A DNA stretch of 55,363 nt from Pseudomonadota bacterium (GCA_043825875.1 JBDRRF010000015.1:1-55363); one strand, 5' to 3'; positions 787 through 40,805 are shown, counted from the stretch's first letter. Translations and numbers: made by a program. Notes: generated by a model from the sequence alone, not told the origin.

Positions 787-2115
787 ATGAAAATTGATCC
801 TATCATATCCGGACAATTGCCTGAACGTGTTCAGGAGGCCATTTTTAATCAACAGAACAAAAGTGAAATACTTGTAGGTTGGTTTCAGCTATCTATTGTT
901 AGTTTATTCGGCATACTCTATACTGTTAGCCCCAAGACTTTTTCTTCTCAGAATACATTTACACTTGTTCCATGGTTTCTGGCTATATATTTTATTCTTA
1001 CCTGTGCAAGGATTCTGCTGGCGCAAAGAGGAAGACTTTCAACGCCACTGCTCTATTTGTCTGTACTTGCGGATATTGGTTTACTTCTGTCCATGATTTG
1101 GGCATTTCATTTGCAGTATAATCAGCCTCCCACATTTTATTTGAAATCACCAACCTTGCTGTATGTCTTTATTTTTATTGCCTTGCGGACTTTGCGCTTT
1201 GAAGCGCGATATGTCGTGACGGCTGGCATTATCGCCGCTTTGGGCTGGATCGGATTAAGCTTTTATGCAGGTTATGTTTCAGGTGGTATTAAGATGGTAA
1301 CTCGTGATTATGTACATTATATGACTTCAAACAGCATTCTGGTGGGTGCTGAACTGGATAAGACTATAACAATTCTGACAGTCACCGCAATCCTGGCAGT
1401 GGCTATTACCAGAGCCCGCCGTTTGATGGTGCAAGCTGTGGTGGAAGGGGCCGCAGCTCGTGACCTGGCTCGATTTTTTTCACCGGAAATTGCCCGCAAG
1501 ATTGTGGCCAGTGAAAAACAGATTAGGGCAGGGCAGGGCCAGATTCGGCACGCCGCTATTTTTAACTGTGACATAAGGGGTTTTACTAGAATGGCCGGCA
1601 ATATTGAACCGGATGTTCTTATGAGTTTACTGGCTGAATATCAAGCACTGATCATACCCATTATCCACCAGCACGGAGGAGCTATTGATAAATTTATGGG
1701 CGATGGCATTATGGCCACCTTTGGAGCAGCTTTACCCAGCGAAACTTATGCCGCAGATGCTTTGCGTGCTACGGATGAAGTTCTATCCGCTGTTGACTTG
1801 TGGAATGAGACTTTAACTGCTCATAATCGCCCGCAAATTCGGATAGGCGCGGCTGTATCTACCGGGCAGATTATTTTCGGGGCCGTAGGTGATGCGGATC
1901 GATTGGAATATACTGTTATTGGGGATGCAGTTAATCTATGCGCCAAACTTGAGAAACACAACAAGACCGAAGGAGTTCGGGCTTTGACTACTGAAAATAC
2001 TTACACACTTGCGTTTAAACAGGGTTTTCGATTTATAGATGAGGATAAACGGCTTAAGCAACGCAGGGTGGAAGGCGTAGATGATCCAATAAACCTGATA
2101 GTATTGGCCAATTGA
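787..2115 (+). CDS. Membrane-bound class III adenylate/guanylate cyclase
   Basis: About 6 N-terminal TM segments; motifs FNCDIRGFT, IDKFMGDGIMA, EYTVIGDAVNLCAKLE. Confidence 0.92.
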   Translation: MKIDPIISGQLPERVQEAIFNQQNKSEILVGWFQLSIVSLFGILYTVSPKTFSSQNTFTLVPWFLAIYFILTCARILLAQRGRLSTPLLYLSVLADIGLLLSMIWAFHLQYNQPPTFYLKSPTLLYVFIFIALRTLRFEARYVVTAGIIAALGWIGLSFYAGYVSGGIKMVTRDYVHYMTSNSILVGAELDKTITILTVTAILAVAITRARRLMVQAVVEGAAARDLARFFSPEIARKIVASEKQIRAGQGQIRHAAIFNCDIRGFTRMAGNIEPDVLMSLLAEYQALIIPIIHQHGGAIDKFMGDGIMATFGAALPSETYAADALRATDEVLSAVDLWNETLTAHNRPQIRIGAAVSTGQIIFGAVGDADRLEYTVIGDAVNLCAKLEKHNKTEGVRALTTENTYTLAFKQGFRFIDEDKRLKQRRVEGVDDPINLIVLAN

Positions 2116-2309
2116 TATCAATGACATCCTTTGCTTCTTTAATATAAATTACTTGATTTTAAATAAATATTGCTGTATAGAATATTTCAATGGAATAACA
2201 AATGTATTTAGAACCGGATAATACTATTCATCTTAATTGTTAATATTACTACATCTTATATCTGATCATATTCAATAACCATCCGGTTAAGTTTAACAGG
2301 AGGTGTGAT

Positions 2310-2795
2310 ATGAACAAGCCAGTAAACAGTTGGGATGATATTCCTTCTTTAGAATTGGAGATGGAAGATTCTTCTAAAGAAGAAAAAAACAGAGATAATC
2401 GTCGCCATGGCAGGATTGATTCTAATGTATTGAAGGGCTTACTGCTCGAAAATATATCTTTTCTTCCTATAAAGATAGCCACATTAAACGGTGTTTACGA
2501 TGGTAATATAGAAAATCTGAGCCAAAGCGGCATCCGTTTTTCAGTACCTAATTCCCTTGAAAAAGGTGAGGCTGTTAAGCTGGGATTTATTATCAATTCT
2601 CGTAAGATTACTGTAAAAGGAATTGTCATATGGGTAAATAATTATGAATCAGGTTCAACGGGAGGCTTTGAATTTGTTGATCCTGATCAAAAGGATGTTG
2701 ATTTTATCGCAAGTTTGATTCAAGCAAGCAATTTTAATAAAGTTGCCGAAGCCGAGGAAAGTAAAAAAGAAAATATTGAAGACTTCCCCGAATAA
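2310..2795 (+). CDS. PilZ-domain (c-di-GMP binding) protein
   Basis: RRHGR (RxxxR) and NLSQSG (D/NxSxxG) motifs; AGGAGG RBS. Confidence 0.85.
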   Translation: MNKPVNSWDDIPSLELEMEDSSKEEKNRDNRRHGRIDSNVLKGLLLENISFLPIKIATLNGVYDGNIENLSQSGIRFSVPNSLEKGEAVKLGFIINSRKITVKGIVIWVNNYESGSTGGFEFVDPDQKDVDFIASLIQASNFNKVAEAEESKKENIEDFPE

Positions 2796-3006
2796 GCTTT
2801 ATTTGAATCTTTCTAAATTATTAAATGATTTAATCAGTTTTTAAGCCTGGGTTTTAAATTAATATTTATCGCTGCATTATTATATCTTTATAAGCAACCA
2901 TAGTAGTTCTCACAAATATAAGACCTGCCTTGAAACATAGTATTAATAATCTATTCTATTGAGCCAATTTCAAATTGCAAGCTAATAAAAAGACAGGAGT
3001 GTTGTT

Positions 3007-4581
3007 TTGGAACTGATAATCAATGATTTGCAAATTCCCATTGAAAAAGACGGGATTGATGAATATTTAAATGCTGTTTCCAAAAAGCTTGAAACAGACA
3101 AAAACAATATATCCATCGTAAAAATTCTTAGTAAATCACTTGATATAAGAAGCAAAGAACAATTCTATTATAAAATATCACTTGTTGTAAGTACTGATAT
3201 CAGCTTTAAAAACGATCAAAATATATCTGTATATACAGAAGAAATAAAAGCAAAAAGTAAAATAAATAATATTAAAGACAGGCCTATAATCGTAGGTTTT
3301 GGGCCTGCCGGCATGTTTGCTGCTCTTGAACTTATAGATCATGGGATTAAACCTTTAATATTTGAAAGAGGTAAAAAGATTAAAGAACGCTCAATTGATA
3401 TTCAAAGATTTATAAAAAATAGAGAGATAAATCCTGAATCAAATATCCAGTTTGGTGAAGGAGGCGCCGGGTCGTATTCGGACGGAAAACTTTTTTCCAG
3501 AAGAAATAATAATACTAGCTATGTAAATCGGGTGTTAAAGACTTTTATTAAATTTGGCGCACCTGAAGAAATAGGCTATATCAGCAAGCCTCATTTGGGT
3601 ACTGACGTATTATGCAATATAGTTACTAATATAAGGCTATATATCCTTGAAAGAGGCGGTGAGATATTATACAGCTCTAAAATGACGGACATCCTGATAT
3701 CAGAGGGTATGGCATCGGGCATTATAATTAATGGTGAGAAGGAATATCTTTCTTCAAGTATCTATATTGCTTTGGGGCATTCCGCGCGCGATACATTTGA
3801 GATGATGTATAATAAAGGTGTTGCTCTTGAGCAAAAGCCGATTTTGGTTGGAGTGAGAATAGAGCATCCTGTTGAAACTATTAATCTTATGCGCTATGGT
3901 GATAAATATAAGAATTATCCTGCCTTAGGAGCTGCTACCTATTCTTTGAATTATACCAATCGAAAAATTAAAAGGGGAGTTTATACTTTCTGCATGTGCC
4001 CGGGAGGTGAAGTAATTAATGCTTCATCCAATCAAGGTATGCTGGTTGTAAACGGAATGAGTTACTCAGTCAGGTCATCGGTATTTTCAAATGCAGCTCT
4101 TGTTGTGACCTGTCATATAGATGATTATAAATCAGCGAATCCATTGGCCGGTATCAAGTTTCAAAAAGATATAGAGCAAAAGGCCTTTAACGCAGGAGGA
4201 CAAAAGTGGGAAGTACCAGCGCAAAACCTGATGGATTTTTTGGGTGATCAACACTCTTCCTGCTTAAATAAAAACTCGTACAAGATGGGGGTTGTTTCTG
4301 TTGATATGAAAGAGATTTTTCCAGAATTTGTGACCAAGGAACTTTTGGCCGCATTTAATAAATGGAAAGAAGATTATCCGTTGTTTGTGTCGGAACATGC
4401 GATATTGTTAGGTGCGGAAACAAGAACTTCATCTCCTGTTCGAATTAAACGCAATGATAAATTTGAATCGGTAAATATAAAAAATTTGTACCCTATCGGT
4501 GAAGGTTCAGGCTATACAGGTGGTATAACAAGTTCTGCCGCTGATGCCATAAAGGCTGTTGAAACACATCTGCATTTATAA
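3007..4581 (+). CDS. FAD-dependent oxidoreductase/dehydrogenase (uncharacterised family)
   Basis: IVGFGPAG Rossmann motif; QFGEGGAGSYSDGKL; FCMCPGG; GEGSGYTGGITSSA; TTG start with AGGAG RBS. Confidence 0.88.
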   Translation: MELIINDLQIPIEKDGIDEYLNAVSKKLETDKNNISIVKILSKSLDIRSKEQFYYKISLVVSTDISFKNDQNISVYTEEIKAKSKINNIKDRPIIVGFGPAGMFAALELIDHGIKPLIFERGKKIKERSIDIQRFIKNREINPESNIQFGEGGAGSYSDGKLFSRRNNNTSYVNRVLKTFIKFGAPEEIGYISKPHLGTDVLCNIVTNIRLYILERGGEILYSSKMTDILISEGMASGIIINGEKEYLSSSIYIALGHSARDTFEMMYNKGVALEQKPILVGVRIEHPVETINLMRYGDKYKNYPALGAATYSLNYTNRKIKRGVYTFCMCPGGEVINASSNQGMLVVNGMSYSVRSSVFSNAALVVTCHIDDYKSANPLAGIKFQKDIEQKAFNAGGQKWEVPAQNLMDFLGDQHSSCLNKNSYKMGVVSVDMKEIFPEFVTKELLAAFNKWKEDYPLFVSEHAILLGAETRTSSPVRIKRNDKFESVNIKNLYPIGEGSGYTGGITSSAADAIKAVETHLHL

Positions 4582-4653
4582 AAAAGCCATCTTTTTTGTT
4601 GCTTTTTATGTATAAAGAAGCTTTAAACTGCCATTATTTTTAGAGGTGTTTGT

Positions 4654-6534
4654 ATGATAAGCGTAGAAAATATTTCAAAAAGTTATGGCGGTTATATTCT
4701 TTTCGATGGGGCCGGGTTCAAGATAAACCCAAAAGAAAGAGTCGGGCTGGTAGGTAGAAACGGCCATGGAAAAACTACATTATTCAGACTGATAAAAAAA
4801 GAAGAACAACCTGATTCCGGAAATATTATTATACCAAAGTCTTATCGTATAGGATGTGTTGAACAGCAAATCGAATTTACGGAAGATACAGTGCTCAAAG
4901 AGGGCATGAAAGGTCTTTTGGAAGATGAAAAAGATCACTTCTGGAAGGTTGAAAAAATTTTGGCCGGACTTGGCTTTTCTTCAGATGATTTAGAAATCAA
5001 TCCTCTTGAGCTTTCAGGTGGATTCCAGGTTCGACTTAATCTTGCCAAGTTAATAGTATCCGAACCGGATCTTCTCCTTTTGGACGAGCCCACAAACTAT
5101 CTTGATATTACTTCCATACGTTGGGTTGAGCGCTTTCTTGTTAACTGGCCCCGCGAACTAATGCTTATAACCCATGACAGAGGGTTTATGGATAAAGTTG
5201 TAACCCATGTCGTAGGAATACACAGGAACAAGATAAGGAAAATACCAGGCAACACGGAAAAATATTATACTCAAATAGCTCAGGACGAGGAGATATACGA
5301 AAAAACGCGCGTCAATGATGATAAGCGCAAAAAAGAAATTGAGCTGTTTATAAGCCGCTTCAGGGCAAAGGCAAGGCTTGCCAATATGGTGCAATCAAGA
5401 GTTAAAACCCTTAATAAGATGGAAAAAAAGGATAAGCTTGCAAACATAAAAACCCTCGACTTTTCCTTTAGAAGCGCCCCATATCGGGGAAAGCGCATTC
5501 TTGAAGCAAGTGATATATGCTTTTCGCATGATCCGCAAACCCAGCTTATCAGGGATTTTTCGATCACCATGGGAGCACGAGACAGGGTATGTATTATAGG
5601 AAAAAACGGCAAGGGCAAAACAACACTTCTTAAAATTCTTGCCGGTGTGCTTGTTCCTCAAAAAGGGCTGGTAGATTACAATCCGGCGGCCATAAAAGGA
5701 TTTTTTGAACAGACAAATGTGAGCCATCTTATAGACAGCCGTACAGTAGAAGAAGAAATCCTTTATTCTCATGCTGATATAGATAGGCAGGTTGCAAGAA
5801 ATATTTGCGGAGTAATGATGTTTCAGGGAGATTCCGCTTTAAAGAAAATAGGTGTTTTATCAGGCGGAGAAAAGAGCAGAGTGCTTGTAGGAAAGCTGCT
5901 TGCAACTCCGGTTAATCTTCTTCTTTTAGATGAGCCGACAAATCATTTTGACATGGAATCCTGCGATGCATTACTTGCTGCTATCGATTCTTTTGAAGGT
6001 GCAATAATTATGGTAACGCATAATGAAATGTTTCTTCATGCCCTTGCAGAGCGCCTTATTGTATTCCAGGATGAAAACGTGCATGTTTTTGAGGGAAGTT
6101 ACCAGCGGTTTTTAGAAACAGAAGGATGGAAAGAAGAAAAAATATCAGGTCAAAGTACTTTTATATCTTCCGATATCGTTGAACCCTTATCAAATCAAGG
6201 CATTAAGATAAACAAGAAAGAACTCCGCCGTCTTCGCTCCGAGATAGTCACTGAAAAATCAAAAACATTAAATCCCATAGAACGAAAGATTTCAAAAACT
6301 GAAAATGAAATCGAAGTTCTCGAAAAAAAGTTAAGCAGCTTGATGGAAGCTATGCAAAAAGCTTCGGAAGACAAAACAGGCAAAAAAATTGTCGAACTGT
6401 CAAAATCTATTCATACTTGCCAGACATCCATAGACAGGCTTTTTAATGAACTTGCAGCGCTAACCGATGAATTTGAAGAAAAGAGCGCTGTGTTTGAAGA
6501 AAAGCTGAAACAGATAGAACTTCCTGAAGAATAG
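4654..6534 (+). CDS. ABC-F family ATPase (ribosome-associated, Uup/YheS-like)
   Basis: Two NBDs (GRNGHGKTT, GKNGKGKTT; LSGG; LLLLDEPTN), no TM segments, C-terminal coiled coil. Confidence 0.92.
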   Translation: MISVENISKSYGGYILFDGAGFKINPKERVGLVGRNGHGKTTLFRLIKKEEQPDSGNIIIPKSYRIGCVEQQIEFTEDTVLKEGMKGLLEDEKDHFWKVEKILAGLGFSSDDLEINPLELSGGFQVRLNLAKLIVSEPDLLLLDEPTNYLDITSIRWVERFLVNWPRELMLITHDRGFMDKVVTHVVGIHRNKIRKIPGNTEKYYTQIAQDEEIYEKTRVNDDKRKKEIELFISRFRAKARLANMVQSRVKTLNKMEKKDKLANIKTLDFSFRSAPYRGKRILEASDICFSHDPQTQLIRDFSITMGARDRVCIIGKNGKGKTTLLKILAGVLVPQKGLVDYNPAAIKGFFEQTNVSHLIDSRTVEEEILYSHADIDRQVARNICGVMMFQGDSALKKIGVLSGGEKSRVLVGKLLATPVNLLLLDEPTNHFDMESCDALLAAIDSFEGAIIMVTHNEMFLHALAERLIVFQDENVHVFEGSYQRFLETEGWKEEKISGQSTFISSDIVEPLSNQGIKINKKELRRLRSEIVTEKSKTLNPIERKISKTENEIEVLEKKLSSLMEAMQKASEDKTGKKIVELSKSIHTCQTSIDRLFNELAALTDEFEEKSAVFEEKLKQIELPEE

Positions 6535-6634
6535 ATTTAACTATTAACACCCAGGGCCGGTCGAACCTCTGAGGCTCGCACCAGCAGAGCTGGTGGTTTA
6601 TGCAAGAAAATTAGATGCAGCTATGGAGGAATAT

Positions 6635-8788
6635 ATGACGTTTGTTTCGGAAGCTCCCCAAAAGAATACGGAACTGGAATGGTGGTTCTGTCGCGGGAAT
6701 TATCAAGTTGGTTCGGAGCCTCCTACCTTTTTTATGACCAGTTTTTTCAGGACATTTTCAAAATCTTTAGAGTCAGAGATTACGGGATACTCTCTGTTGA
6801 CAGCTTCTCTATCATCAGATGAAACGTGCCACCGTTTTTCCTCATGGATTGACCAAGGCGCCCAGACTATTTTTTTGAAAAATGTAGATACTATTGAAGA
6901 GTCTACCCTTAGCAAGCATTTTAAAAATGCCTGTCTGGATGAAATTAAAAAATATGGCCCGCCTGCACCCATAAAGCTAAAGTCATCTGTTCCGGTACTA
7001 TCAGAAGATATCCTGGATATAAAATGGGATTCATACAGGTTTTTTCAAACCGGAGACAAGTTTAATCTTTACTGTGATTTTCCCGGAGACAAAAATTGCC
7101 AATTCAGTTTTAGCCCTAGGTATGACCGTTTGAATCTTTCTTCAGGAGATCTTTCCAGGTTTGGCAATATGGCTTATTTTACTTATCCCGATATGGCATT
7201 ATCCGGAATAGTAAACAATCGAAAAGTAGAGGGCAATGCCTGGTTTGACCACCAATTTGGTGATTTTTCCTGGATGTTTAATGATGATGGGAAATCCCCT
7301 TTGTCCTGGATATGGGCAGGAATCAATTTAGACAGCGGCACAGATATTATTTTTATGCGACACATTGATGCAAAAAACCGGCAAACCTTGCATCAATGGG
7401 TTTATGTCCGGCATGCTTCAGGACAAAAACAAAAACTGTATACTGCCAAACTTCATATTATAAAAGAGTGGGAAAGCTCTGTCACCCACATTCATTATCC
7501 AATCGCATTAAGGCTTGAAGTGCCGGAAATTGATCTTAACCTTGATATACTGCCCATGGCGGATGATCAGGAAATTCCATTTTTTGGGGTACAGCGGGCA
7601 ATATGGCAAGGTGCTGCAATGGTTTCCGGTACCATAAACGGTATTTCCCAAACAGGAAAAGGACGACTTGAGTTAAACGGATTTGGTTATATCTTTGATT
7701 CAAGAGAATATATCAACACTTTTGTGAAAACCATTGATACCCATCTGGAAGATTTTTTGCCCCGTAAAATTGATACGCAATGGATCGAAAAGAACATAGG
7801 GAAAGAAAATTATCGCCATGAGCCGGAAGGAATTACAGAAGTCATATCCAAACCGGCCTGGGATTTTTTATCTCGCAGTGGCAAACACTGGCGCCCTTTG
7901 TGTTCCATATTATTTGTTGAATCTACAGGCATACTATCCAAACCTTATGCCAGGTTGATATCTCTGTTTACTGAATTTAATCATACAGGTTCTTTGATCA
8001 TTGATGATATTGAAGATGATTCTCTGATCCGCAGGGGAAAAGAATGTCTTCATCGGGAATTTGGTATTGATGTAGCCATCAATCTTGGAACTTTCCTTTA
8101 TTTTCTTCCTTATATTGTTTTAAAAGACTACCCGGACCTGACTGATCAGCAGCGGCTTGAAATATATCATCTTATCATTCAGGTATGGACAAGGGCGCAT
8201 ATAGGCCAGGGGCTGGATATCTATTGGTCAAAACATTTGAGCCGGGAGAATCTTGAAAAATGGTTAAATGATGACTTAGATGAAAAACTTTTGCAGATGT
8301 ATGCATATAAAACAGGTGCAAGCGTTGAGGCTGTCGCCGAACTGGCCTGTATACTTTCACATGACAGTGGAAAAAAACGGGAGATATTTGCCGCGCTGGG
8401 CAGAGTATTTGGAGTTGCTTTCCAAATTATTGATGATGTAAATAATTTTAATGATTCGCCCGGATGGACAAAAACATGCGGTGAAGATATCAGTGCGGGT
8501 AAACCTACCTATGTGATCGTGACAGCTTTAAAAATGTTGCCTGATAAGGAAAGAAACCGATTTTTAGATATCTTTTGTGATAGTAAACTCAGAAAAGAAA
8601 AAACCGGACTTAAAGAGGCTATTGACATGATAAACAAATCCGGAGCTCTTTCAATATGCAGGTCAAAGGCTGAGAAAATGATAGACTGTGAGTGGCAAAA
8701 TTTTAATGCATATGCCCTGCATTGTGATTCCAAAATAATGCTTAGAATGCTGATTGCCGCATTGCTCAATTATTCCTATGATGTATAG
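6635..8788 (+). CDS. Fusion protein: N-terminal AttH/CrtC-like lipocalin-type domain plus C-terminal trans-isoprenyl diphosphate synthase
   Basis: N-half: LEWWF, GNAWFDHQFG, WIWAGINL, WES..T...YP, DQE, WQGA..VSG, GRLELNG. C-half: GKHWRP, SLIIDDIEDDSLIRRG, GQGLD, YKTG, FQIIDDVNN, EDISAGKPT. Start moved to ATG 6635 behind GGAGG. Confidence 0.85.
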   Translation: MTFVSEAPQKNTELEWWFCRGNYQVGSEPPTFFMTSFFRTFSKSLESEITGYSLLTASLSSDETCHRFSSWIDQGAQTIFLKNVDTIEESTLSKHFKNACLDEIKKYGPPAPIKLKSSVPVLSEDILDIKWDSYRFFQTGDKFNLYCDFPGDKNCQFSFSPRYDRLNLSSGDLSRFGNMAYFTYPDMALSGIVNNRKVEGNAWFDHQFGDFSWMFNDDGKSPLSWIWAGINLDSGTDIIFMRHIDAKNRQTLHQWVYVRHASGQKQKLYTAKLHIIKEWESSVTHIHYPIALRLEVPEIDLNLDILPMADDQEIPFFGVQRAIWQGAAMVSGTINGISQTGKGRLELNGFGYIFDSREYINTFVKTIDTHLEDFLPRKIDTQWIEKNIGKENYRHEPEGITEVISKPAWDFLSRSGKHWRPLCSILFVESTGILSKPYARLISLFTEFNHTGSLIIDDIEDDSLIRRGKECLHREFGIDVAINLGTFLYFLPYIVLKDYPDLTDQQRLEIYHLIIQVWTRAHIGQGLDIYWSKHLSRENLEKWLNDDLDEKLLQMYAYKTGASVEAVAELACILSHDSGKKREIFAALGRVFGVAFQIIDDVNNFNDSPGWTKTCGEDISAGKPTYVIVTALKMLPDKERNRFLDIFCDSKLRKEKTGLKEAIDMINKSGALSICRSKAEKMIDCEWQNFNAYALHCDSKIMLRMLIAALLNYSYDV

Positions 8789-8835
8789 CTATTTCGATAT
8801 TTCCGGTTTTACTTGTTATAAAGCAGGAAGATGTA

Positions 8836-9522
8836 ATGTCTGAATATGCCTTTGTTTTAAAAAACCTTAGCAAACAATACCGCAGCAATAACCTCCCGGC
8901 TGTGGATAATATCTCTTTGCAGATACAAAAAAATGGTTTTGCAGCTATTTTGGGACCCAGCGGCAGTGGAAAATCCACCCTTCTGAATATGATGGGTGGT
9001 ATTGAATCTCCTGATACCGGCCAACTTTTTATCATGGAAGAAAAAATGGCGGTTTCCGGCTGGAACAGGGTCCGGCAGAAAACCATTGGTTTTGTCTTTC
9101 AAAATTTCAATCTGTTTCCGACCCTGACTGCGTTGGAAAATATTGAAATGCCGATGTTCGGTGTAATAAGAGGGCGAAAAAACCGGCGCGCAAGGGCAAC
9201 GGCTCTGCTTAAAAGAGTTGATCTGCTCAACCGGGCCAGCCATAAGCCCTCTCAATTATCAGGCGGAGAATGCCAACGGGTGGCCATTGCCAGGAGTCTT
9301 GCAAATTCACCCCAAATTCTACTGGCTGATGAACCTACCGGCAACCTTGATTCAGGGACTTCGCTAAATATCGTATCTCTTTTCAAAGATATTCATACCA
9401 TTAATAAAACAACACTAGTAGTAGTTACCCATGATGAAAAAATTGCAGAGCATGCGTCTCTTATCCTTAACCTGAAAGATGGAAAATTAGTTTCAGAATA
9501 CAGGAAACCAATCACTAAATAA
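8836..9522 (+). CDS. ABC exporter ATP-binding subunit (LolD/MacB-like)
   Basis: GPSGSGKST, LSGGECQRVAIAR, LLADEPTGNLD, VTHD. Confidence 0.93.
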   Translation: MSEYAFVLKNLSKQYRSNNLPAVDNISLQIQKNGFAAILGPSGSGKSTLLNMMGGIESPDTGQLFIMEEKMAVSGWNRVRQKTIGFVFQNFNLFPTLTALENIEMPMFGVIRGRKNRRARATALLKRVDLLNRASHKPSQLSGGECQRVAIARSLANSPQILLADEPTGNLDSGTSLNIVSLFKDIHTINKTTLVVVTHDEKIAEHASLILNLKDGKLVSEYRKPITK

Positions 9523-9534
9523 TGGAGCCGGGGT

Positions 9535-10656
9535 ATGTTTTTTATTTCCATTGTATTTAAAAATTTGATACGGAGAAGTCTTAGGACTTTTTTTACTGTT
9601 CTTGGTATTGCCACTGCAGTCGCAGCTTTTATCGCACTGGTAGGCTTGGCCAGGGGATATGAAAATGCATGGCAGAACTCCCTGGAAGAAAGGAATACAC
9701 ATCTGTTTGGATCCCAAAAAGGTGTAGTGGATATTTTATCTGGCACCATTGAAAAATCAGTTTGCGATGAAATGTCTAAAATCAAAGGCGTCAACAGGGT
9801 TAGTGGTGAGCGGATTGAGCTTCTCTCTTTAGACAGCGGATCAATGATAATTGTTGCAGGATGGCCTAAAGACAGTTACCTGTGGGAAAGTATTCACTTA
9901 AAAGAAGGACATTTGCCGGACCCATCATCTGCTAATGAGGTTGTTCTTGGTTCCATGGCATCTACTGCCTTAAAGATCCGGCCTGGCGGAACTTTTAAAA
10001 TGCTTGGGAAAATTTTTAAGGTTTCAGGTATTTCCGATTCCGGCAGCGCCATGAAGAATAATGCCATGATTCTTACGCTGGAAGGGCTGGAGGAAATCAA
10101 CAATACTAAAGGAGAAATCACGACTGTTAACTTCCAATTGGATCACCCGGATAATGAAATTGCTGTTTTAGAAACCACAAGACGTTTGCAGGCAGCTTTC
10201 CCTGAATATACCTTTACGAAATCCGATGCGCTTTCAGAAAACAATAAAATTCTTCAGATGTTTCAAACAATGGCCTGGGGAACCAGTATGATTGCCATTT
10301 TTATTTGTCTGGTGGTGATCGTCAATACCCTGCTTATGTCTGTAATGGAAAGAACCCATGAAATAGGCGTACTGGTTACTTTGGGCTGGAGTTCAAGACG
10401 TATCCTTGGTCTGATTGCTCTGGAGGGGCTGGTTCTTACAATAGCCGGTGCAATGGCCGGCAGTGTTATAGGCGCTTACGGTCTTTTTACGCTGGCTGAC
10501 ATGCCCCAGATGAAAAGTTTTATCCAGCCGGGGATAGATTTGCGTCTGATTCTTGAAATTGTTTGCGCCACACTGGTAATAGGTTTTATAGGCAGTTCTT
10601 ATCCGGCATGGAGGGCCATACGTCTTAAACCCGCAGAAGCCCTAAGACACAGCTGA
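9535..10656 (+). CDS. ABC exporter permease (MacB/FtsX family)
   Basis: N-terminal TM, large periplasmic domain, NTLLMSVMERTHEIG, YPAWRA..L.P.EALR terminus. Confidence 0.9.
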   Translation: MFFISIVFKNLIRRSLRTFFTVLGIATAVAAFIALVGLARGYENAWQNSLEERNTHLFGSQKGVVDILSGTIEKSVCDEMSKIKGVNRVSGERIELLSLDSGSMIIVAGWPKDSYLWESIHLKEGHLPDPSSANEVVLGSMASTALKIRPGGTFKMLGKIFKVSGISDSGSAMKNNAMILTLEGLEEINNTKGEITTVNFQLDHPDNEIAVLETTRRLQAAFPEYTFTKSDALSENNKILQMFQTMAWGTSMIAIFICLVVIVNTLLMSVMERTHEIGVLVTLGWSSRRILGLIALEGLVLTIAGAMAGSVIGAYGLFTLADMPQMKSFIQPGIDLRLILEIVCATLVIGFIGSSYPAWRAIRLKPAEALRHS

Positions 10657-10722
10657 TAAAAAATGGTTCCCATGACCGCAAATATTATTTTTACCTATTG
10701 AGCCAGGTTCAAATTTGATTTG

Positions 10723-13020
10723 TTATCTTAAAGTCTGAATAGTTCTTGTAGGCCTTTTATAAAAAGATGAGTTTATAGTTAATTTCTTTCTCAAAAACGG
10801 ATTCTTTATATACAGTGTTCCATTCCCGCTTGAATATGCATATTTTCGTCCGGTGAAATTGAAATCTCTATTAACTTCTTTTACTTCAATTAAAGGAAAG
10901 TTATTAATGTCATTTTTACTGCAACGATTGTATACATGGTTGCTAATTAATGATTGCCTGCCTGAACGAGCATTAGAGCCTTTGGGCCAGATTTTTCTAA
11001 TGGGATTAAGGCAATCATTATCATCATAACCTAAAAGAATATTTAATTCTACTGTTTCTCCTGTGGTCATTTTATATAAATACCACTTGGAATCTCCTCC
11101 GGTTTTATTATTAAAATTAGAATCAGGATTGTTTTCTAAAACACTGTTTTTTAATTCAGTCAAATTGGCAAATTTATGTCTGGGCACTATTTCCCAAAAA
11201 CCTCTGGCATAAGTTCTGAATTTCTTCTTGTTTTCGTTCTTACTTACTCTACCAATAACAACATAATAACCATAATTTTGTAAAGACGTTAAGTCAAAAA
11301 ATGAAAATCTCACTCTTGATTTATCAGAAGTAGAGAATTCTTTCTTATTGCCATCAATTAATCTATAAGGAATATTATCCCAGAAAGATGGATAGCGCAT
11401 TGGATATTCCAAATGCCGATCAGTATTGTCCCGATCTTTATCTATACTTCCGGAAAAAGCATCTCCAAAATATTTATAATATCCATAGGAAAAACTTTTA
11501 TAAGTTCCTGCATTATCACTTAGCCAATGTCTTTTTCTTCCTTTCATAAACATTACATGTTCTTTCATATCATTATCATTTTCCCATTGAGGGATGTTAT
11601 GTTTAGTCATCAGCAGATGTGGTCTGGAAGCAAAATCATAATGCTTTAGGTATTTGGAATTATCCGAGCTTTGAAAAATATCATATGTAACTTTAAAACG
11701 ATTATATTTTCCGCCGGAAATATTCATAAAGTCATTCGTAGCAAAATAAAATTCAGGAGCAGATTCTACATTTTTACCGCGAATATAATTATAGCAATTT
11801 TTATCAAAATATCTTGGGCCTTGATGAGCTTTGTAATGGTCGGTTGAATAACGGGCCTGCATTCTGGCCCAATAACCATTGTGTTTATTCAACATGAAAT
11901 CATGAATAACATCAGGAATGCGATAATCTAACAAAGAAGCCCATAAAGCGTGCCCTGATGAATTGGAAAAGTCATTAAAAAATGAATTTTCCCAATTGTA
12001 GGCACCACTCAAAATCCCCATCATAAAAATAACTCCATCGTTTTCATACAAACCTAATTTTTTGGCGTAATCACTGTTTCTGCGATGAGGTCCAAATCTT
12101 TTGCCTTGAAAAGATTGAAAAGCAAATTTAGTAGACAAATAGTCTAAAGCATTTCTGGCTCCTTTTTTCAGATTAGAATTGTTTGCAAAAGAAAATATGT
12201 TTAATAAAGCATGCATGGAAAGTGCCTGGTATGGTCTGCCATTAGTTTCAAAAAATCCATTATGAACAATTCTTCCCGTGGCTTGAAGCAAAAGATCTTC
12301 TACTTCTTTATCCTGGTTAATAAAATTATTTCTATTGCCGTATTTTCCTGTTCTTAATCTATTATCATTTCTGGGATTATCTGATATCCATTGGTTAGTT
12401 AAATACTGTGAAGAAAAAATCATTAAAATATGGTTTTCCGTTTCCGGGTAAGTGATCCCATGATGTATAACTTTCTTTTTATCAGTAGATTGCCCCATGT
12501 AATAGCTCAATCCTTTATCAACAATATTAAAACAGGCTTGATTCGTTAAATATTTAGAATCATTTTTAAATAAGTATAATAATGTAATCATTTCTTTCAT
12601 TTTCATATCATAATTACCATCACCATGAGTTGCAGTTCCGGCAATTCCAATTTTTTTAATTGTGGTTGTCCATGTTTCCACGATTTGAGGAAAATTTGCA
12701 GGAGGCATGTATCTGTATAAAGGTGCAGCGCCTGGAGATGTAATTTGATTTGAATCATTTTCTTTTAGAGCTAATAAACCGGCAGCTATTCTGCGAAAAG
12801 ATTTAGTTCCTGCATCATCTTTAAAATTTCCGATACCATTTCTATATAGATCCCATAGCCATCTTTCAATAATGGCTTTTTGTCTGGATGAAAACTCATT
12901 GTTGGCAGCAGTAACATTGCTTGGAAGTGAACGAGCCTGGACATTTTCATTAATCAGGAAAACAGCAAGCAAGATAAGTAATAAACAAAAGCTATAGTTT
13001 ACATTTTTACAAAATTTCAT
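10723..13020 (-). CDS. Large secreted hypothetical protein (765 aa)
   Basis: Long ORF with signal peptide (…LLAVFLINENVQA|RS); very AT-rich; no family confidently recognised. Confidence 0.8.
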   Translation of the reverse strand: MKFCKNVNYSFCLLLILLAVFLINENVQARSLPSNVTAANNEFSSRQKAIIERWLWDLYRNGIGNFKDDAGTKSFRRIAAGLLALKENDSNQITSPGAAPLYRYMPPANFPQIVETWTTTIKKIGIAGTATHGDGNYDMKMKEMITLLYLFKNDSKYLTNQACFNIVDKGLSYYMGQSTDKKKVIHHGITYPETENHILMIFSSQYLTNQWISDNPRNDNRLRTGKYGNRNNFINQDKEVEDLLLQATGRIVHNGFFETNGRPYQALSMHALLNIFSFANNSNLKKGARNALDYLSTKFAFQSFQGKRFGPHRRNSDYAKKLGLYENDGVIFMMGILSGAYNWENSFFNDFSNSSGHALWASLLDYRIPDVIHDFMLNKHNGYWARMQARYSTDHYKAHQGPRYFDKNCYNYIRGKNVESAPEFYFATNDFMNISGGKYNRFKVTYDIFQSSDNSKYLKHYDFASRPHLLMTKHNIPQWENDNDMKEHVMFMKGRKRHWLSDNAGTYKSFSYGYYKYFGDAFSGSIDKDRDNTDRHLEYPMRYPSFWDNIPYRLIDGNKKEFSTSDKSRVRFSFFDLTSLQNYGYYVVIGRVSKNENKKKFRTYARGFWEIVPRHKFANLTELKNSVLENNPDSNFNNKTGGDSKWYLYKMTTGETVELNILLGYDDNDCLNPIRKIWPKGSNARSGRQSLISNHVYNRCSKNDINNFPLIEVKEVNRDFNFTGRKYAYSSGNGTLYIKNPFLRKKLTINSSFYKRPTRTIQTLR

Positions 13021-13367
13021 AATTAATTCCTATAGAGTTGGTTATTTAAATCCTAAGTGATATTGCAGATATTTCAAGCAGCTATAGAGTATTATGGAAA
13101 ACTTGTCAAATACTATAAGCATCTATGTAAGTTATCAAAGGATAAACTCCAAAATGATATAGGTGTTGGGAGAATAGTAAATAGAGTATACGAGATTTTA
13201 TCTAATGTGATAGAAATGCAGGGATCAGCTAATTTTGTTCATTTGCCGTACCAACATATCTGAAAATATATTGTAATTATCCACAGTGTTGGGTAGAATT
13301 TACTGTCTGATACTGTGAATAGTTAAAAAACTTGTGAGTAAAGTATGAATAAAAAGGGTAACAACAT

Positions 13368-13856
13368 ATGCAGCGAAAGTATAAAATTAGAAATAAAGTA
13401 CTTTTCCGAATAATTGGGCTTATAATACTTATATGCTTACTTCAGGCATGCGATAATGATAGCCAGTTTATCAAAGATATGGATGCTTTTTTTATGATGC
13501 CTGAGCGGATAGATTTAAAAGAAAGAGATAATGTGACCGAAGTTGTGCAGAGGTATTTTCCACAAGGTATGAAATTGTCTGATGCCCTGAAGGATCTTGA
13601 TGAACAAGGATTTGAAATATATGAGTACCAAAAGAAAGGTTTCCGCAAATGGCCGAATGGCGAATTAAAGCCATATAAGGATAAAAATCATGCGAAAATG
13701 GGTGCTACGCCAGGAATAAAAGTTAGTTACTTTGCTAAAAAGGTATACGGCTCTATCTATCTTTTGGTAACAAAACATGCAAGAATTACAATTAATTCAA
13801 ATGATGGAGAGAAAATTAAATATTCCTATGGGCAAATAGTATTACTTGGTATGTAA
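13368..13856 (+). CDS. Putative lipoprotein
   Basis: Basic N-terminus, hydrophobic stretch and lipobox LQAC. Confidence 0.72.
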   Translation: MQRKYKIRNKVLFRIIGLIILICLLQACDNDSQFIKDMDAFFMMPERIDLKERDNVTEVVQRYFPQGMKLSDALKDLDEQGFEIYEYQKKGFRKWPNGELKPYKDKNHAKMGATPGIKVSYFAKKVYGSIYLLVTKHARITINSNDGEKIKYSYGQIVLLGM

Positions 13857-13869
13857 CGCCTGATTATTC

Positions 13870-15960
13870 CTAAAATTGCCAGATTATTTTTGTGTAAACT
13901 CCGCGTTCAACCTCGGATGGAGAGTGATTATCCCGGTCGGTTCCCCATTCACTATGGCTATAATCAAACAGATTCTGGCCAACAATCGACAGTTCTAAGT
14001 TATTTAATATCTTCCATCCAATACGCAGATCTAAAGTTAAATAGCTGCCGACATTCAGGCCTGAAAGATCATCGACGTAACGTGCCCAAAAATCAAGCTC
14101 TACATTGTTTGAAATGTCCATTGTTGATCTTAAGGAAAATTGGTGTCTGGGACTTTGCTCCTCTGCTTCTTCAGATCGAGTATCATTGCTTTTGACATCC
14201 GGAGTTAAATCCATATTTAGATATGTATAAGCTCCCTGAAGGCGCCACCAATCCAGGATTCTGTAATCTGTGGCAATTTCCACTCCATAGGTTTTGCCAT
14301 GCATCAAATTATCTATTGTATTAGGAAGTACAAGGTGTGCCGGTGCGGGGGAACTCTCAAAATAGGGCGTGTCTGTTTCAAAAGTTCTGAGATTTTCATA
14401 ATCATTATAAAATAAAGCAATATCAAAACTTAAGTTGTTTTTTTGTTGAGTGCGATATCCAAGTTCGTAGGCAATTACTTCTTCATGTTTGATATCGTCA
14501 TTACCGAAGACGCTTAATAACATAGGAGTACTGCCGGGTATAACAACTGGATTGTGACGGCTGTCATGTTCTATGCGATCAGGAGTTCTTACTGCTCTTG
14601 ATATCGATGCCCACAGAGAATGCTTTGTATAAGCTGTCCATGCTATTTTGGCGCTGGGCTGAAACTCAAAGCCGGTATAGTCATTGTGCTCAAATTTAGT
14701 TCCCAAAGTAAGGATAAGGCAATCTTTTAAAAGTGTGATAGAATCTTGTAAAAAGCCGCTGTATAATTGATTAGTCGATTTCTCCGGATCAAATGAAAAA
14801 AAGAAGGTATCACTAAGTTCATCATAGGTTAACCGATATCCCAATCCCCAAACGATTTCATGCATTTGATTTAAAACCAACCGGTTCTGAAAGTCGAAAT
14901 CAAATGTATCTCTTTTTTCTTTTAATCTTATATTATTACGGTCTGTACGGTCATAATATATCTGCATTTGCAAATCGGAATCATTGGCAAAAGAGTGTTG
15001 CCAGCGCGCAAGAATATTAGCACCTGTCATATTGGAATCATCTTCCACGGTTTGGGTGAAAGGAGGATTTAATTGAGGTACTTTGAGAAGCTCTCCCGCT
15101 TTTGCGTCATACATATCTCCAAGAAATGTCAGCGTGTTAGCATTCGATAAATTGGAATCTATACGAAATCCTGCCCGATAGGCATACCAGCCGTCATCGG
15201 AAGGATCACCCGCAGAATCAATGGCATCGTCTTTATTAAAGTATTTAGCATAGGCCCTGTAATAGCTTTTATCGGAAAGGTTTCCACCGTATCGAATTCC
15301 GGTAAATGCACGCTCCTCTGTTCCGATCCCGGCTGTTAATAATTTTCCCTGGGTATCTTTTGCCTTTTTGGTTATGATGTTGATAACACCGTTTACCGCA
15401 TTAGCTCCCCAAAGGCTTCCTCCAGGGCCACGTATTACTTCGATCCGGTCAATGTCTTCTATTAAGGTATCTTGTATATCCCAATAGACTCCGGAAAATA
15501 AGGGAGAATATACTGTACGGCCGTCGATAAGAACAAGAAGTTTGGTGGCAAAGCGGCCATTAAAGCCTCTGGCTGTAATAGCCCATTTATTCGTATTGAT
15601 TCGTGCAACTTGAATTCCCGGTACCATTCGCAGGATTTCAGGGATATTCGTAGCCCCGGAGCGTCTTATATCTTCTGTTGTAATGGTAAATACTGCGGAA
15701 GGAGCTTCGAATAGTTTTTGAGGCTTTTTTGCTACTGAAGTTACTGTGATTTCCACATTCATGAGTTCTTCAAGAGTCAATTCAGTAAGATCAAATCCTG
15801 GTTTTTGGGTATATTTGCTGTCGCTTGCCCAGCAAGCAGGAGTTATGATTATATAGAGCAAGAGCCAAAACACTATTGCCGCAACCGACATGGCTGCTAA
15901 AAAAGTGTGTCGGAGATATTTATTAAGAAAATAATTATTTTTGTTAGTGTTACAAATCAC
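13870..15960 (-). CDS. TonB-dependent receptor
   Basis: Plug motifs (LTLEELMNV, LRMVPG, LLVLIDGR, IDRIEVIRGPG..LWGANAVNGVINIITK); terminal aromatic WQF; GGAG RBS before GTG. Confidence 0.93.
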   Translation of the reverse strand: MICNTNKNNYFLNKYLRHTFLAAMSVAAIVFWLLLYIIITPACWASDSKYTQKPGFDLTELTLEELMNVEITVTSVAKKPQKLFEAPSAVFTITTEDIRRSGATNIPEILRMVPGIQVARINTNKWAITARGFNGRFATKLLVLIDGRTVYSPLFSGVYWDIQDTLIEDIDRIEVIRGPGGSLWGANAVNGVINIITKKAKDTQGKLLTAGIGTEERAFTGIRYGGNLSDKSYYRAYAKYFNKDDAIDSAGDPSDDGWYAYRAGFRIDSNLSNANTLTFLGDMYDAKAGELLKVPQLNPPFTQTVEDDSNMTGANILARWQHSFANDSDLQMQIYYDRTDRNNIRLKEKRDTFDFDFQNRLVLNQMHEIVWGLGYRLTYDELSDTFFFSFDPEKSTNQLYSGFLQDSITLLKDCLILTLGTKFEHNDYTGFEFQPSAKIAWTAYTKHSLWASISRAVRTPDRIEHDSRHNPVVIPGSTPMLLSVFGNDDIKHEEVIAYELGYRTQQKNNLSFDIALFYNDYENLRTFETDTPYFESSPAPAHLVLPNTIDNLMHGKTYGVEIATDYRILDWWRLQGAYTYLNMDLTPDVKSNDTRSEEAEEQSPRHQFSLRSTMDISNNVELDFWARYVDDLSGLNVGSYLTLDLRIGWKILNNLELSIVGQNLFDYSHSEWGTDRDNHSPSEVERGVYTKIIWQF

Positions 15961-16184
15961 ACTATAACTCCAGTAGCTTCAAACAAAACATTATGATTAG
16001 AAAATCTTTATATTGCAGGGACTAAATATTATATTATACCTATCATTATGTGTATATCGGTATATATCACTAAAACTTGAAGAATTGAGATCTGTAATTT
16101 TGGGAATTACGATTTGTGGTAAAAGCAGAATGGATTTGATAAAAAGTTCAGAAAGCAAAACATAAAATAATAGCAAAACCTGGG

Positions 16185-39503: not shown

Positions 39504-39604
39504 CCAAAAATTGTGTGCGCAATTATATCAATAGCAAATCGAATATGAATTCAATATTCTATTTGCATTATTCAAAAACCAAGCAGGATATATGGACTAA
39601 TCTC

Positions 39605-40774
39605 ATGAAAAGATTTATTTCCCACTTATTGATTATATCGATTGTTTTTTTGCTGTTTCAATCGCCTATTTTAGCAGAATCTGCCGATTTCAGGAAAACT
39701 AAAATTGCTGTTCTTGACTTTCAGCTTCAGGGTGAGGGTTTTGAAACTCAGGATATGGGCTTAATCGTTGCGGAATGGTTTATTACAGCTCTTGTTAAGG
39801 CCGGGCGTTTTGAAGTTATCGAAAGAGGATTATTAAAAAAACTATTGGAAGAACAAAAGCTATCTATGACAGGCGTTGTTGATGCCACAACTGCTACACA
39901 GATAGGAAAGTTTCTCGGGGTTAAAACTATAATTAGCGGTTCTGTAATGAAACTGCAAGACGTAATTGAAATAAACGCAAGAATAATAGATGTGGAAACT
40001 GCTTCTATTATTGCAGCCGAAAATGTCAAAAGCTCAGCAGCTGTCAAGCTTCAGGATCTGGTTGTTCTGATGTCTGCTAAAATAATAAAAAACTTTCCAT
40101 TGGAGGGTTATATTGTAAACAAATCCGGTTCCAAAGTTACGATTGACTTAGGGCGTATGGCCGGTGTTAAAGATGATATGGAATTTTCGGTTTATAAAGA
40201 AGGTAAAGTAATCAAGCATCCCAAAACCGGTGCGGTAATCGATGTCCAGCGGATAGAAACAGGAAAAATAAAAATTACATCAATAAGGGATAAAATCGCA
40301 GAAGGGATAATTGTAAAAGAAGATTCTCCCGGTTCCATTTCCTATGGGCAGCTTGTCTGCAGTATAATGGGAAAGCTTCAACCGCTTGAACAAAGTGTGC
40401 CGCCCAGGGATAGAGCTTTCCAAAGCTCCCGATCATCAAGAAAATCTTCATCAAAGAAAGGCGAAAGCCCTGGCGATGTCGAAAGTATGCTTAAGTCTTC
40501 TAATTTGGAAGATAAAGAAGCAGCAGCAAAAATTGTTGCAAAACTTTACAGAAACGATCAGAGGATTCTTGATATAGTCAATGATGAACTGTTGAAAGGG
40601 TACAATGGCCCATCCAGTGACAGGCACTTCGTTAATTCTATGGCATGGCTTTGCAATGCGCTCGGGGCATCAGGAAATTCGAAATACAGATCAACTCTTG
40701 ACACTGTTTCAAGAAATGCGCCTAACAGAAAACTGAAAAAATATGCGAAAAAAAATCTGAGACGTCTCAGATAG
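39605..40774 (+). CDS. Exported CsgG/FlgO-like protein with FlgT-C-like domain and helical C-terminal tail
   Basis: Signal peptide; IAVLDF..F.VIER..L..LLEEQKL..G..D; INARIIDVET; IDLG...GV....F.VY.EG....HPKTG. Confidence 0.72.
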   Translation: MKRFISHLLIISIVFLLFQSPILAESADFRKTKIAVLDFQLQGEGFETQDMGLIVAEWFITALVKAGRFEVIERGLLKKLLEEQKLSMTGVVDATTATQIGKFLGVKTIISGSVMKLQDVIEINARIIDVETASIIAAENVKSSAAVKLQDLVVLMSAKIIKNFPLEGYIVNKSGSKVTIDLGRMAGVKDDMEFSVYKEGKVIKHPKTGAVIDVQRIETGKIKITSIRDKIAEGIIVKEDSPGSISYGQLVCSIMGKLQPLEQSVPPRDRAFQSSRSSRKSSSKKGESPGDVESMLKSSNLEDKEAAAKIVAKLYRNDQRILDIVNDELLKGYNGPSSDRHFVNSMAWLCNALGASGNSKYRSTLDTVSRNAPNRKLKKYAKKNLRRLR

Positions 40775-40805
40775 AGTTTTATATTATGATATAAGAGCAT
40801 ATATA

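Follow-up and report, generated by a model that had tools for sequence, protein, structure and literature searches.

Hydratases of the AttH/CrtC superfamily act on isoprenoid double bonds. CrtC is reported to add water to the terminal C=C bond of acyclic carotenoids with the help of four essential residues, His239, Trp241, Tyr266 and Asp268 in R. gelatinosus numbering (PMC4717167), and to accept more than 20 C12–C20 terpenes for hydration (PMC12402844). Kievitone hydratase is described as hydrating a prenyl side chain (PMC5805349), and the AttH-like protein Hgs as making hydroxylated glycerol dialkyl glycerol tetraethers from unsaturated archaeal lipids (bioRxiv 10.1101/2025.10.20.683597); the same preprint, whose main text does not contain the word 'polyprenyl', states that tertiary alcohols are the only products known from AttH-like hydratases. 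The structure paper on NE1406, a putative AttH protein, also noted AttH beside LolD/ATP-binding cassette (ABC) genes (PMC2954199). Here we describe a locus in a 55,363-nt stretch of DNA from a Pseudomonadota bacterium (GCA_043825875.1 JBDRRF010000015.1:1-55363; the whole stretch is called the window below), in which a single gene encodes an AttH/CrtC-like barrel fused to a prenyl diphosphate synthase and is followed by genes for an ABC ATPase and a MacB-type permease. An earlier note on this DNA had called the cassette a candidate undescribed one. A full-text literature search, with subscription journals largely outside its reach, found no paper on the fusion; yet the architecture is common in databases, and it is therefore uncharacterised rather than unseen, a widespread bifunctional architecture made from two known families.

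We tentatively favour the reading that the fusion is a bifunctional geranylgeranyl diphosphate (GGPP) synthase and isoprenoid hydratase, which would make a tertiary-hydroxylated C20 lipid for extraction by the ABC system. Synthase activity, predicted from intact motifs, is the firm part of this reading; product length, hydration, hand-over between the domains and export are what we infer beyond it. The C-terminal domain would act as an active short-chain synthase of the type-III kind, extending an allylic diphosphate with isopentenyl diphosphate until, most likely, C20 (GGPP) is reached. The cytoplasmic barrel would be a cofactor-free isoprenoid hydratase that protonates a trisubstituted C=C bond of the geranylgeranyl chain, or of a lipid derived from it, and adds water to yield a tertiary alcohol. 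The LolD-like ATPase and the MacB-type permease would pull the amphiphilic terpenoid from the cytoplasmic membrane towards the periplasm or the outer membrane.

The C-terminal domain matches the Pfam family polyprenyl_synt (PF00348) over residues 402–662, with 170.6 bits against a cut-off of 27 (E-value 4.6e-50). The synthase motifs follow in order, GKHWRP, DDIEDDSLIRRG, Y489-F490, H522-x-GQGLD, K559-T560, FQIIDDVNN (597–604) and GK623, with DDIED at 457–461 followed by RRG; every motif of trans-isoprenyl diphosphate synthases named in the earlier note is present in the translation. Invariant in the 41 full-length homologues are K417, R420, H450, D457-D458-x-x-D461, R466-R467, G524-Q525-D528, K559 and D601, and conservation reaches at least 90% for T560, D600 and K623. 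The roles of these residues are known from the literature on farnesyl and geranylgeranyl diphosphate synthases (FPPS and GGPPS).

Among solved structures the best matches of this domain are the GGPPS 1WY0 and the yeast type-III GGPPS 2DH4 (both ∼2e-21), and the prenyltransferase (PT) domains of fungal bifunctional synthases (8V0F, 6V0K, 9E2H and 9WYV) are also among the matches in the Protein Data Bank (PDB). The alignment to 2DH4 pairs, in the order window/yeast, DDIEDDSLIRRG/DDIEDNAPLRRG, LYF/MYF, AHIGQGLDIYW/LHRGQGLDIYW and DDVNN/DDYLN. The domain has the full motif set of type-III GGPPSs: DDIED, GQGxDIxW, DDxxN and no aromatic residue at −4/−5, since G452 and S453 occupy positions −5/−4 before the first Asp-rich motif. 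The second Asp-rich motif, listed in the earlier note as DDVNN, is indeed there but is no anomaly, because DDxxN together with DDIED and GQGxDIxW is the type-III GGPPS signature, as in yeast 2DH4. Its fifth residue is N in 34 of the 41 homologues and in 45 of the 66 long representatives defined below, and DDxxN is also seen in stand-alone relatives from DPANN archaea and spirochaetes, the haloarchaeal ones having DDILD. The idea that an aberrant second motif marks an inactive or unusual synthase is thus ruled out. A long-chain product, which might be deduced from G and S at −5/−4, was set aside, as small residues stand there in type-III GGPPSs too.

In the yeast enzyme, Tyr107, Phe108 and His139 stop elongation at C20. 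The aligned residues Y489, F490 and H522 are conserved in the fusion family and for this reason make C20 (GGPP) the likely product, as predicted from the sequence. Where the earlier note had proposed a polyprenyl diphosphate, the identity of the synthase is upheld, but the motifs point to C20 instead of an unspecified polyprenyl chain.

In the N-terminal domain, the translation contains ELEWWF, GNAWFDHQFG, WIWAGINLD, WESSVTHIHYP, DDQE, IWQGAAMVSG and GRLELNG, the complete series of AttH-type motifs reported earlier. Pfam assigns CrtC (PF07143) to residues 177–209 (31.1 bits, cut-off 22.5) and Lipocalin_9 (PF17186) to residues 224–349 (58.9 bits, cut-off 26.2); the profile search of each half that the earlier note had asked for therefore places CrtC, Lipocalin_9 and polyprenyl_synt all above their curated cut-offs. 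The window protein aligns to positions 133–167 of the CrtC profile only, other family members covering positions 1–167. A profile made from an alignment of 35 N-domains (that of the window and 34 from genome loci) matched only two solved proteins in the PDB, 2ICH (putative AttH NE1406, E-value 3.9e-35) and 7A0Q (a 'CrtC domain-containing protein', E-value 1.1e-9).

The AlphaFold2 (AF2) model of residues 1–358, with a predicted local distance difference test score (pLDDT) of 91.9 and a predicted template modelling score (pTM) of 0.91, is all-beta apart from two inserted helices. Foldseek gave 2ICH as its top match (E-value 3e-20, TM 0.71/0.79) and kievitone hydratase 7A0T/7A0Q as the second, with E ∼1e-14 (2e-14) and, for 7A0T, TM 0.65/0.70. 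The N-domain thus has the two-barrel fold of NE1406 and kievitone hydratase, and the AttH/CrtC fold suspected for this half is borne out by structure prediction. The fungal decalin-forming Diels-Alderases CghA, Phm7 and Fsa2 and a 25-phosphosteroid lyase match much less well (E-values 1e-8 to 1e-5).

The last of these matches bears on a reading in which the barrel eliminates or solvolyses a prenyl phosphate or diphosphate, the product being a hydrocarbon or else a tertiary alcohol, for example geranyllinalool, and would amount to a terpene synthase of unrelated fold. 25-Phosphosteroid lyase shares the fold (Foldseek E-value ∼1e-6) and is reported to remove phosphate from an isoprenoid side chain at a tertiary carbon (PMC11061730). 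The similarity is weaker, however (TM 0.45–0.47 versus 0.62–0.79 for AttH and kievitone hydratase), and a Mg2+-diphosphate-binding motif was not seen in the barrel, no search having been aimed at such a motif; we regard this reading as very unlikely.

Within the fusion family E15-W16-W17, D205-H206-Q207, W225, W227, S281, Y288-P289, Q312-E313, W324-E325-G326 and E346 are invariant or nearly so. Among them D205, Q207, W225, W227, S281, Y288, P289, Q312, E313, E325, G326 and E346 are common to kievitone hydratase in the alignment, and most of the (near-)invariant residues are found in the alignments of both 2ICH and kievitone hydratase. About 75 profile positions (76–150, with the invariant E103 and G108) are unaligned to 2ICH, where chain residues 97–132 span the gap. 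Judged from the sequence, the conservation of the residues common to kievitone hydratase is more readily explained by an active site than by a passive carrier.

The protein begins MTFVSEAPQKNTELEWWF and does not have the hydrophobic leader of secreted AttH proper, whereas leaders are present on the stand-alone AttH-like proteins of the same order. A search with the N-domain for proteins of stand-alone length gave three word-sharing matches only, one of them a 365-aa cytoplasmic barrel that ends at the domain border. Among six stand-alone AttH-like loci of the same order, three adjoin genes for an ABC ATPase and an ∼870-aa duplicated FtsX permease, two more have only an ATPase in the stretch and one has neither, so that the known association of stand-alone AttH with ABC genes is seen again here. 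This association, together with the cavity of lipocalin-like barrels and the lipid transport that PMC2954199 proposed for NE1406/AttH from its LolD/ABC context, would suit a non-catalytic lipid-binding barrel that sequesters the product chain, thereby aiding its release or keeping it soluble, or that hands it over to the membrane or to the ABC system. Such a role is improbable in our view: many invariant acidic and polar residues are common to a proven hydratase, and the domain is cytoplasmic, while MacB-type systems load their substrates on the outer face.

The Pfam name of the N-terminal match should be read with care. Strong matches to PF07143 (180–228 bits) occur in 35 of 151 sampled genomes of one (gammaproteobacterial) class (L107–L120; the tally takes in genomes G183 and G081), and 12 of the 14 strong-match loci that were read encode secreted AttH-type proteins, not CrtC, the ORFs taken at the other two (L104 and L114) being in a wrong frame. 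A strong Pfam 'CrtC' match is thus no evidence of a carotenoid hydratase. Two more stand-alone AttH/CrtC-like ORFs lie in the genome of the window (G000:C55:25578-25883 and G000:C89:13480-13728, in frames of 335 and 343 aa), the one on C89 a few kb from ORFs with weak matches to the crtI family.

There is no linker between the halves of the fusion; the last strand of the barrel (GYGYIFD, around residue 355) leads directly into the first helix of the synthase. The full-length AF2 model is compact (pLDDT 92.3, pTM 0.92), the ESM Atlas model of the fusion has a pTM of 0.87, and the barrel is predicted by the models to be rigidly packed on the synthase. A word-indexed search gave 176 homologues, and of the 120 listed nearly all show this set of three Pfam domains in a protein of ∼720–760 aa; among the source names are Desulfatiglans, Desulfopila, Aminicenantes, Acidobacteriota, Verrucomicrobia, Melioribacteraceae and Methanoregula. 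ESM Atlas holds seven clusters with the same three-family set. The fusion is therefore genuine: the assembly artefact considered in the earlier note, or a chance ORF, is ruled out by the architecture shared among homologues from many sources, the compact model and the collinear indel described below.

A genome scan with one genome per species yielded 80 loci, 35 with the fusion and 45 with a stand-alone synthase only. The 35 loci, all other than that of the window, include those of the cultured Desulfatitalea alkaliphila, Bauldia litoralis and Antarctobacter jejuensis, and archaeal ones from metagenome-assembled genomes (MAGs) of Methanoregula, Methanoculleus and Methanomicrobiaceae. The closest homologue (locus L011) has 63% identity, and the nearest stand-alone synthase relatives come from haloarchaea, DPANN archaea and spirochaetes. 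The N-domain profile matched 4384 representatives (clustered at 50% identity) with an E-value of at most 0.001, 484 of them at 1e-30 or below. With the fusion counted by length and synthase motifs, the best 150 of the 4384 comprise 66 proteins of at least 678 aa (all 66 with both synthase motifs), 18 of intermediate length, mostly fragments, and 66 of at most 450 aa, among them the leaderless stand-alone barrels P0176, P0183 and P0122.

A single representative, P0224 (1078 aa), has the C-domain of a GT1 glycosyltransferase (EryCIII-like_C) before CrtC/Lipocalin_9 and polyprenyl_synt; its very acidic N-terminus suggests a halophile. This triple fusion fits a hydroxyl group made by the barrel and then glycosylated. 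A BLAST search with the glycosyltransferase part of P0224 against all ORFs of the 80 loci gave no match.

A quick tree of the fusion was made from 33 rows, leaving out L022 (truncated) and L024 and L038, in which the fusion is split into two overlapping ORFs (L024 4757-6932, a Methanoregula MAG; L038 6962-9149, a Cohaesibacter MAG); the split may reflect a frameshift, an error of sequencing or a genuine division of the gene. The tree disagrees with taxonomy, placing Methanoregula beside Phycisphaerales and a proteobacterium beside an acidobacterium, which fits horizontal spread.

In the genome of the window the fusion belongs to an insertion of three genes (Table 1). It is absent from all 40 related genomes searched (16 of the same genus and 24 of the same order), in which the matches to the fusion are stand-alone synthases or stand-alone barrels. 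One relative, G008, has on one contig both flanks at 95–96% nucleotide identity, collinear over window positions 2300-6533 and 10714-15995, with 33 bp where the window has 4,180 bp. As exactly these three genes fill the indel, the fusion, the ATPase and the permease form one unit, and they are one acquired, strain-specific cassette. The insert is flanked by the stop codons of two genes that converge on it, an ABC-F gene (ending at 6534) and a 765-aa ORF (window 10723-13020, minus strand, ending at 10723); no integrase, transposase or flanking repeat was seen at the insert, no repeat search having been aimed at the junctions. The 765-aa ORF has a signal-like leader and no match in Pfam or NCBIfam, and it lies outside the cassette, since it is present in G008, which does not have the insert. 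A 722-aa frame of another relative (G019:C218) matches fusion residues 50–146 weakly (E-value 8e-4).

Table 1. Coordinates in the window of the three-gene cassette, its genes and the two domains of the fusion protein
Feature	Position	Strand	Product or content	Basis
Fusion gene	6635..8788	+	717 aa; AttH/CrtC-like barrel and type-III-GGPPS-like prenyl diphosphate synthase	ORF, ribosome-binding site, Pfam, homologues, AF2
N-domain, aa 1-355	6635..7699	+	Two lipocalin-like barrels; AttH/CrtC/kievitone-hydratase superfamily	
C-domain, aa 356-717	7700..8785	+	Trans-prenyl diphosphate synthase	Pfam, PDB matches, conservation
ABC ATPase	8836..9522	+	228 aa; LolD/MacB-like	ABC_tran 1.5e-34
MacB-type permease	9535..10656	+	373 aa	One FtsX domain and MacB periplasmic core domain
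Indel cassette	6534..10713	no strand	Exactly three genes: fusion, ATPase, permease	

The open frame of the fusion extends over 6593-8788 from a GTG at 6593; the ATG at 6635 is the likely start, with a GGAGG box upstream (GGAGGAATAT) and in agreement with the N-termini of the homologues. Gaps of 47 bases (fusion to ATPase) and 12 bases (ATPase to permease) separate the genes, and the ORF calls agree with the earlier note in positions, in the length of the fusion and in both gaps. A scan of the cassette for promoters and terminators gave counts no higher than in shuffled sequences and no terminator-like site between the three genes.

The identity of the two downstream products, an ABC ATPase and a MacB/FtsX permease as first proposed, is supported by matches that all pass the Pfam cut-offs: ABC_tran in the ATPase (120 bits), and FtsX (55.7 bits, 6.2e-15) and MacB_PCD (41.7 bits, 2e-10) in the permease. 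With FtsX and a MacB periplasmic core domain in the permease and a separate ATPase, the pair is of the MacB (type VII) kind. It is not a tripartite MacAB-TolC system, as the cassette consists of ATPase and permease only, without an adaptor or outer-membrane partner; nor does it reach the LolCDE equivalogs (LolD 210.5 against a cut-off of 307.75, lolCE 84.7 against 362.45).

In other genomes a MacB-type permease and ATPase adjoin the fusion at eight of the 35 loci (L013, L015, L018, L020, L023, L044, L048 and L049). The pair occurs in two gene orders, ATPase then permease being more similar to the pair of the window and permease then ATPase less so. On the quick tree the eight loci and the window fall into six terminal groups, each a single row or a sister pair and separate from the others. 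None of the 45 stand-alone-synthase loci of the same scan has a MacB-type pair beside it, although these controls come from other taxa and some of their contigs are short. The synteny anticipated in the earlier note thus recurs in distant phyla, but in a minority of the loci.

Pfam and NCBIfam scans of the 130 ORFs within two genes of the fusion revealed recurring themes, namely envelope lipid trafficking and geranylgeranyl chemistry. HAE3/HpnN-like transporters of the resistance-nodulation-division (RND) type abut the fusion at L014 4352-6796 and L038 9146-11434, an MlaC/HpnM-like gene lies between the fusion and the ABC pair (L044 2565-3230), and a LolA-like gene stands beside the fusion at L020 9265-10416. 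Genes of the geranylgeranyl reductase family are found directly upstream on the same strand in two alphaproteobacterial loci (L041 5679-6947 and L045 5651-6898), with 167 and 173 bits against a subfamily cut-off of 158.8. A CrtD-like gene of the phytoene desaturase family lies two ORFs upstream of the fusion at L022, and a B12/radical-SAM gene near it in Methanoregula (L019).

The CrtD-like neighbour raises the question of carotenoids. The earlier note had pointed to the absence of crtB and crtI beside the fusion, and this holds for the window: neither gene was found there, nor is the gene context of a CrtC-type carotenoid pathway present in it. A crt-type cluster does exist on another contig of the same genome (C35:64800-70800 of G000; L121 3832-9760, minus strand), so that a carotenoid link is not dismissible from the neighbours alone. 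The cluster contains a CrtID-like desaturase (622.9 bits, cut-off 640), a phytoene/squalene-synthase-like gene, a GGPPS-like gene, a 220-aa ORF without a family, a CruG/HpnB-like glycosyltransferase and a CruF-like hydratase; its product, as predicted from these genes, may be a carotenoid glycoside, which would be unexpected in the lineage.

The fusion could accordingly be seen as CrtE joined to CrtC, the synthase supplying GGPP for phytoene and the barrel hydrating the psi-end of a C40 carotenoid, with the ABC genes unrelated or moving the carotenoid. The presence of the crt-type cluster, which like the cassette was found in none of the 40 relatives, and the CrtD-like gene at L022 speak for such a role. 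Still, we think it unlikely: a crtI-family gene above cut-off was detected in only nine of the 35 other fusion genomes, some of them incomplete MAGs, and not in 26, which include those of the closest homologue, Methanoregula, Aminicenantes and two cultured strains; moreover, the C35 cluster has its own GGPPS-like gene and CruF-type hydratase, and the window has no crt gene.

The barrel might also be a new type of terpene synthase or cyclase, cofactor-free and driven by protonation, that turns GGPP from the fused synthase into a cyclic or rearranged diterpenoid secreted by the MacB-type pump. In such a cyclase the barrel would protonate the terminal C=C bond of GGPP, and a cyclic diterpenoid would arise as the next double bond, in place of water, captures the carbocation. 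The order of the domains (modifier, then prenyltransferase) and the type-III GGPPS subclass are as in the fungal chimeras, the mechanism of CrtC was likened by its authors to that of acid-initiated terpenoid cyclases (PMC4717167), and the fold supports other carbocation and pericyclic chemistry. Among the enzymes described in the sources cited here, however, every characterised AttH/CrtC enzyme acting on isoprenoids is a hydratase and none is known to cyclise; the triple fusion P0224 and the CrtD-like neighbour at L022 also fit a hydroxylated product better. Both the general proposal of a new cyclase and this particular mechanism seem improbable to us.

Our preferred reading, a GGPP synthase joined to an isoprenoid hydratase with an export system, has to be weighed against several observations. 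The activity of every fusion member is a prediction from sequence, and hydration is not the only available chemistry, because the broader fold also holds the Diels-Alderases and 25-phosphosteroid lyase. The four catalytic residues of CrtC could not be mapped onto the barrel, the PF07143 matches that were fetched being secreted AttH-type proteins, and position 208 is F in the window protein but W in most homologues. No synthase equivalog of NCBIfam passes (the best has 97.6 bits against 468, and GGPP_syn NF041003 has 72.5 bits against 500), the best matches being short-chain and GGPP synthases; the predicted chain length is consequently drawn from the motifs. As for export, 27 of the 35 fusion loci are without the FtsX/ABC pair within their flanks, including the closest homologue L011 (none within 7 kb). 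The presence of the pair is no more clustered on the fusion tree than in shuffles, and the linkage between fusion and ABC genes may therefore be loose. The contrast with the 45 controls is crude, as these come from haloarchaea, DPANN archaea and spirochaetes. Finally, the enzyme would lie in the cytoplasm and MacB-type systems work on the outer side of the membrane, which leaves the flip step unexplained.

Three further regions of the window gave observations of their own. The minus-strand gene at 13870-15960 encodes a TonB-dependent receptor, with 715.8 bits against a cut-off of 645 for the NCBIfam family TOL_0244; in this region ∼320 bp (window ∼15353-15675) have 70–74% identity to several other contigs of this genome and its relatives, a sign of a paralogue family. 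At 39515-42257 (plus strand) a B12-binding radical SAM gene and two ORFs without a family come after a CsgG-like gene, and at 787-2795 (plus strand) the gene for an adenylate/guanylate cyclase-domain protein precedes one for a PilZ-domain protein.

AttH-like proteins are abundant (the 4384 representatives above) and almost wholly uncharacterised, the first lipid-modifying member, Hgs, having appeared only in a 2025 preprint. Fusion of the barrel to a GGPP-type synthase names a probable substrate class, so that in vitro assays with cheap substrates could probe its function directly. Many anaerobic lineages of sediment, peat and groundwater, as well as Methanomicrobia, carry the fusion, and its product could be a widespread hydroxylated isoprenoid lipid that matters for organic geochemistry and membrane biology alike. 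For biocatalysis, a regioselective terpene hydratase that brings its own supply of substrate would be of interest, and for the present genome the cassette marks accessory envelope-lipid chemistry. If the barrel were a cyclase after all, the fungal chimeric cyclase-prenyltransferases would have a counterpart of independent fold in bacteria and methanogenic archaea, and these organisms would harbour a hidden source of the diterpenoid biomarkers of sediments.

Compared with known systems, the barrel belongs to the superfamily and has the fold of the AttH-like hydratases (CrtC, kievitone hydratase 7A0Q/7A0T, Hgs and NE1406 2ICH), which, where their function is known, add water to isoprenoid C=C bonds without a cofactor. 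Common to the fusion and these proteins are EWW, W-x-D-x-Q-W-G, W-x-W, S..T...YP, DQE, (W/Y)EG and G.G..E; the barrel described here differs from them in having no signal peptide and in being fused to a prenyl diphosphate synthase. With the type-III GGPPSs (yeast BTS1 2DH4 and human GGPS1 2Q80) and the fungal PT domains the synthase half shares DDIED..RRG, GQGLDIYW, DDxxN, small residues ahead of the first motif, and Y-F and H where the alignment places the residues that set chain length; its similarity to the solved ones is only ∼2e-21, however, and its N-terminal partner is a beta-barrel instead of an alpha-helical cyclase. The fungal chimeras consist of an alpha-helical class I/II cyclase fused to a PT, and only the PT half has a match here, so that the analogy drawn in the earlier note extends to domain order and prenyltransferase subclass and to nothing beyond these two.

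Hopanoid hpn clusters (HpnN RND, HpnM) likewise couple terpenoid biosynthesis to envelope lipid trafficking, and HAE3/HpnN-like and HpnM/MlaC-like genes stand beside some of the fusions, though every HpnN or HpnM score falls far short of the cut-off. In AttEFGH-type loci, as in the window, the gene for an AttH-like protein has those for a LolD-like ATPase and an FtsX-family permease as neighbours; there, AttH is exported and the permease is a duplicated protein of ∼870 aa, whereas here the barrel is cytoplasmic and fused to the synthase, and the permease is a single MacB/LolC-like protein of 373 aa.

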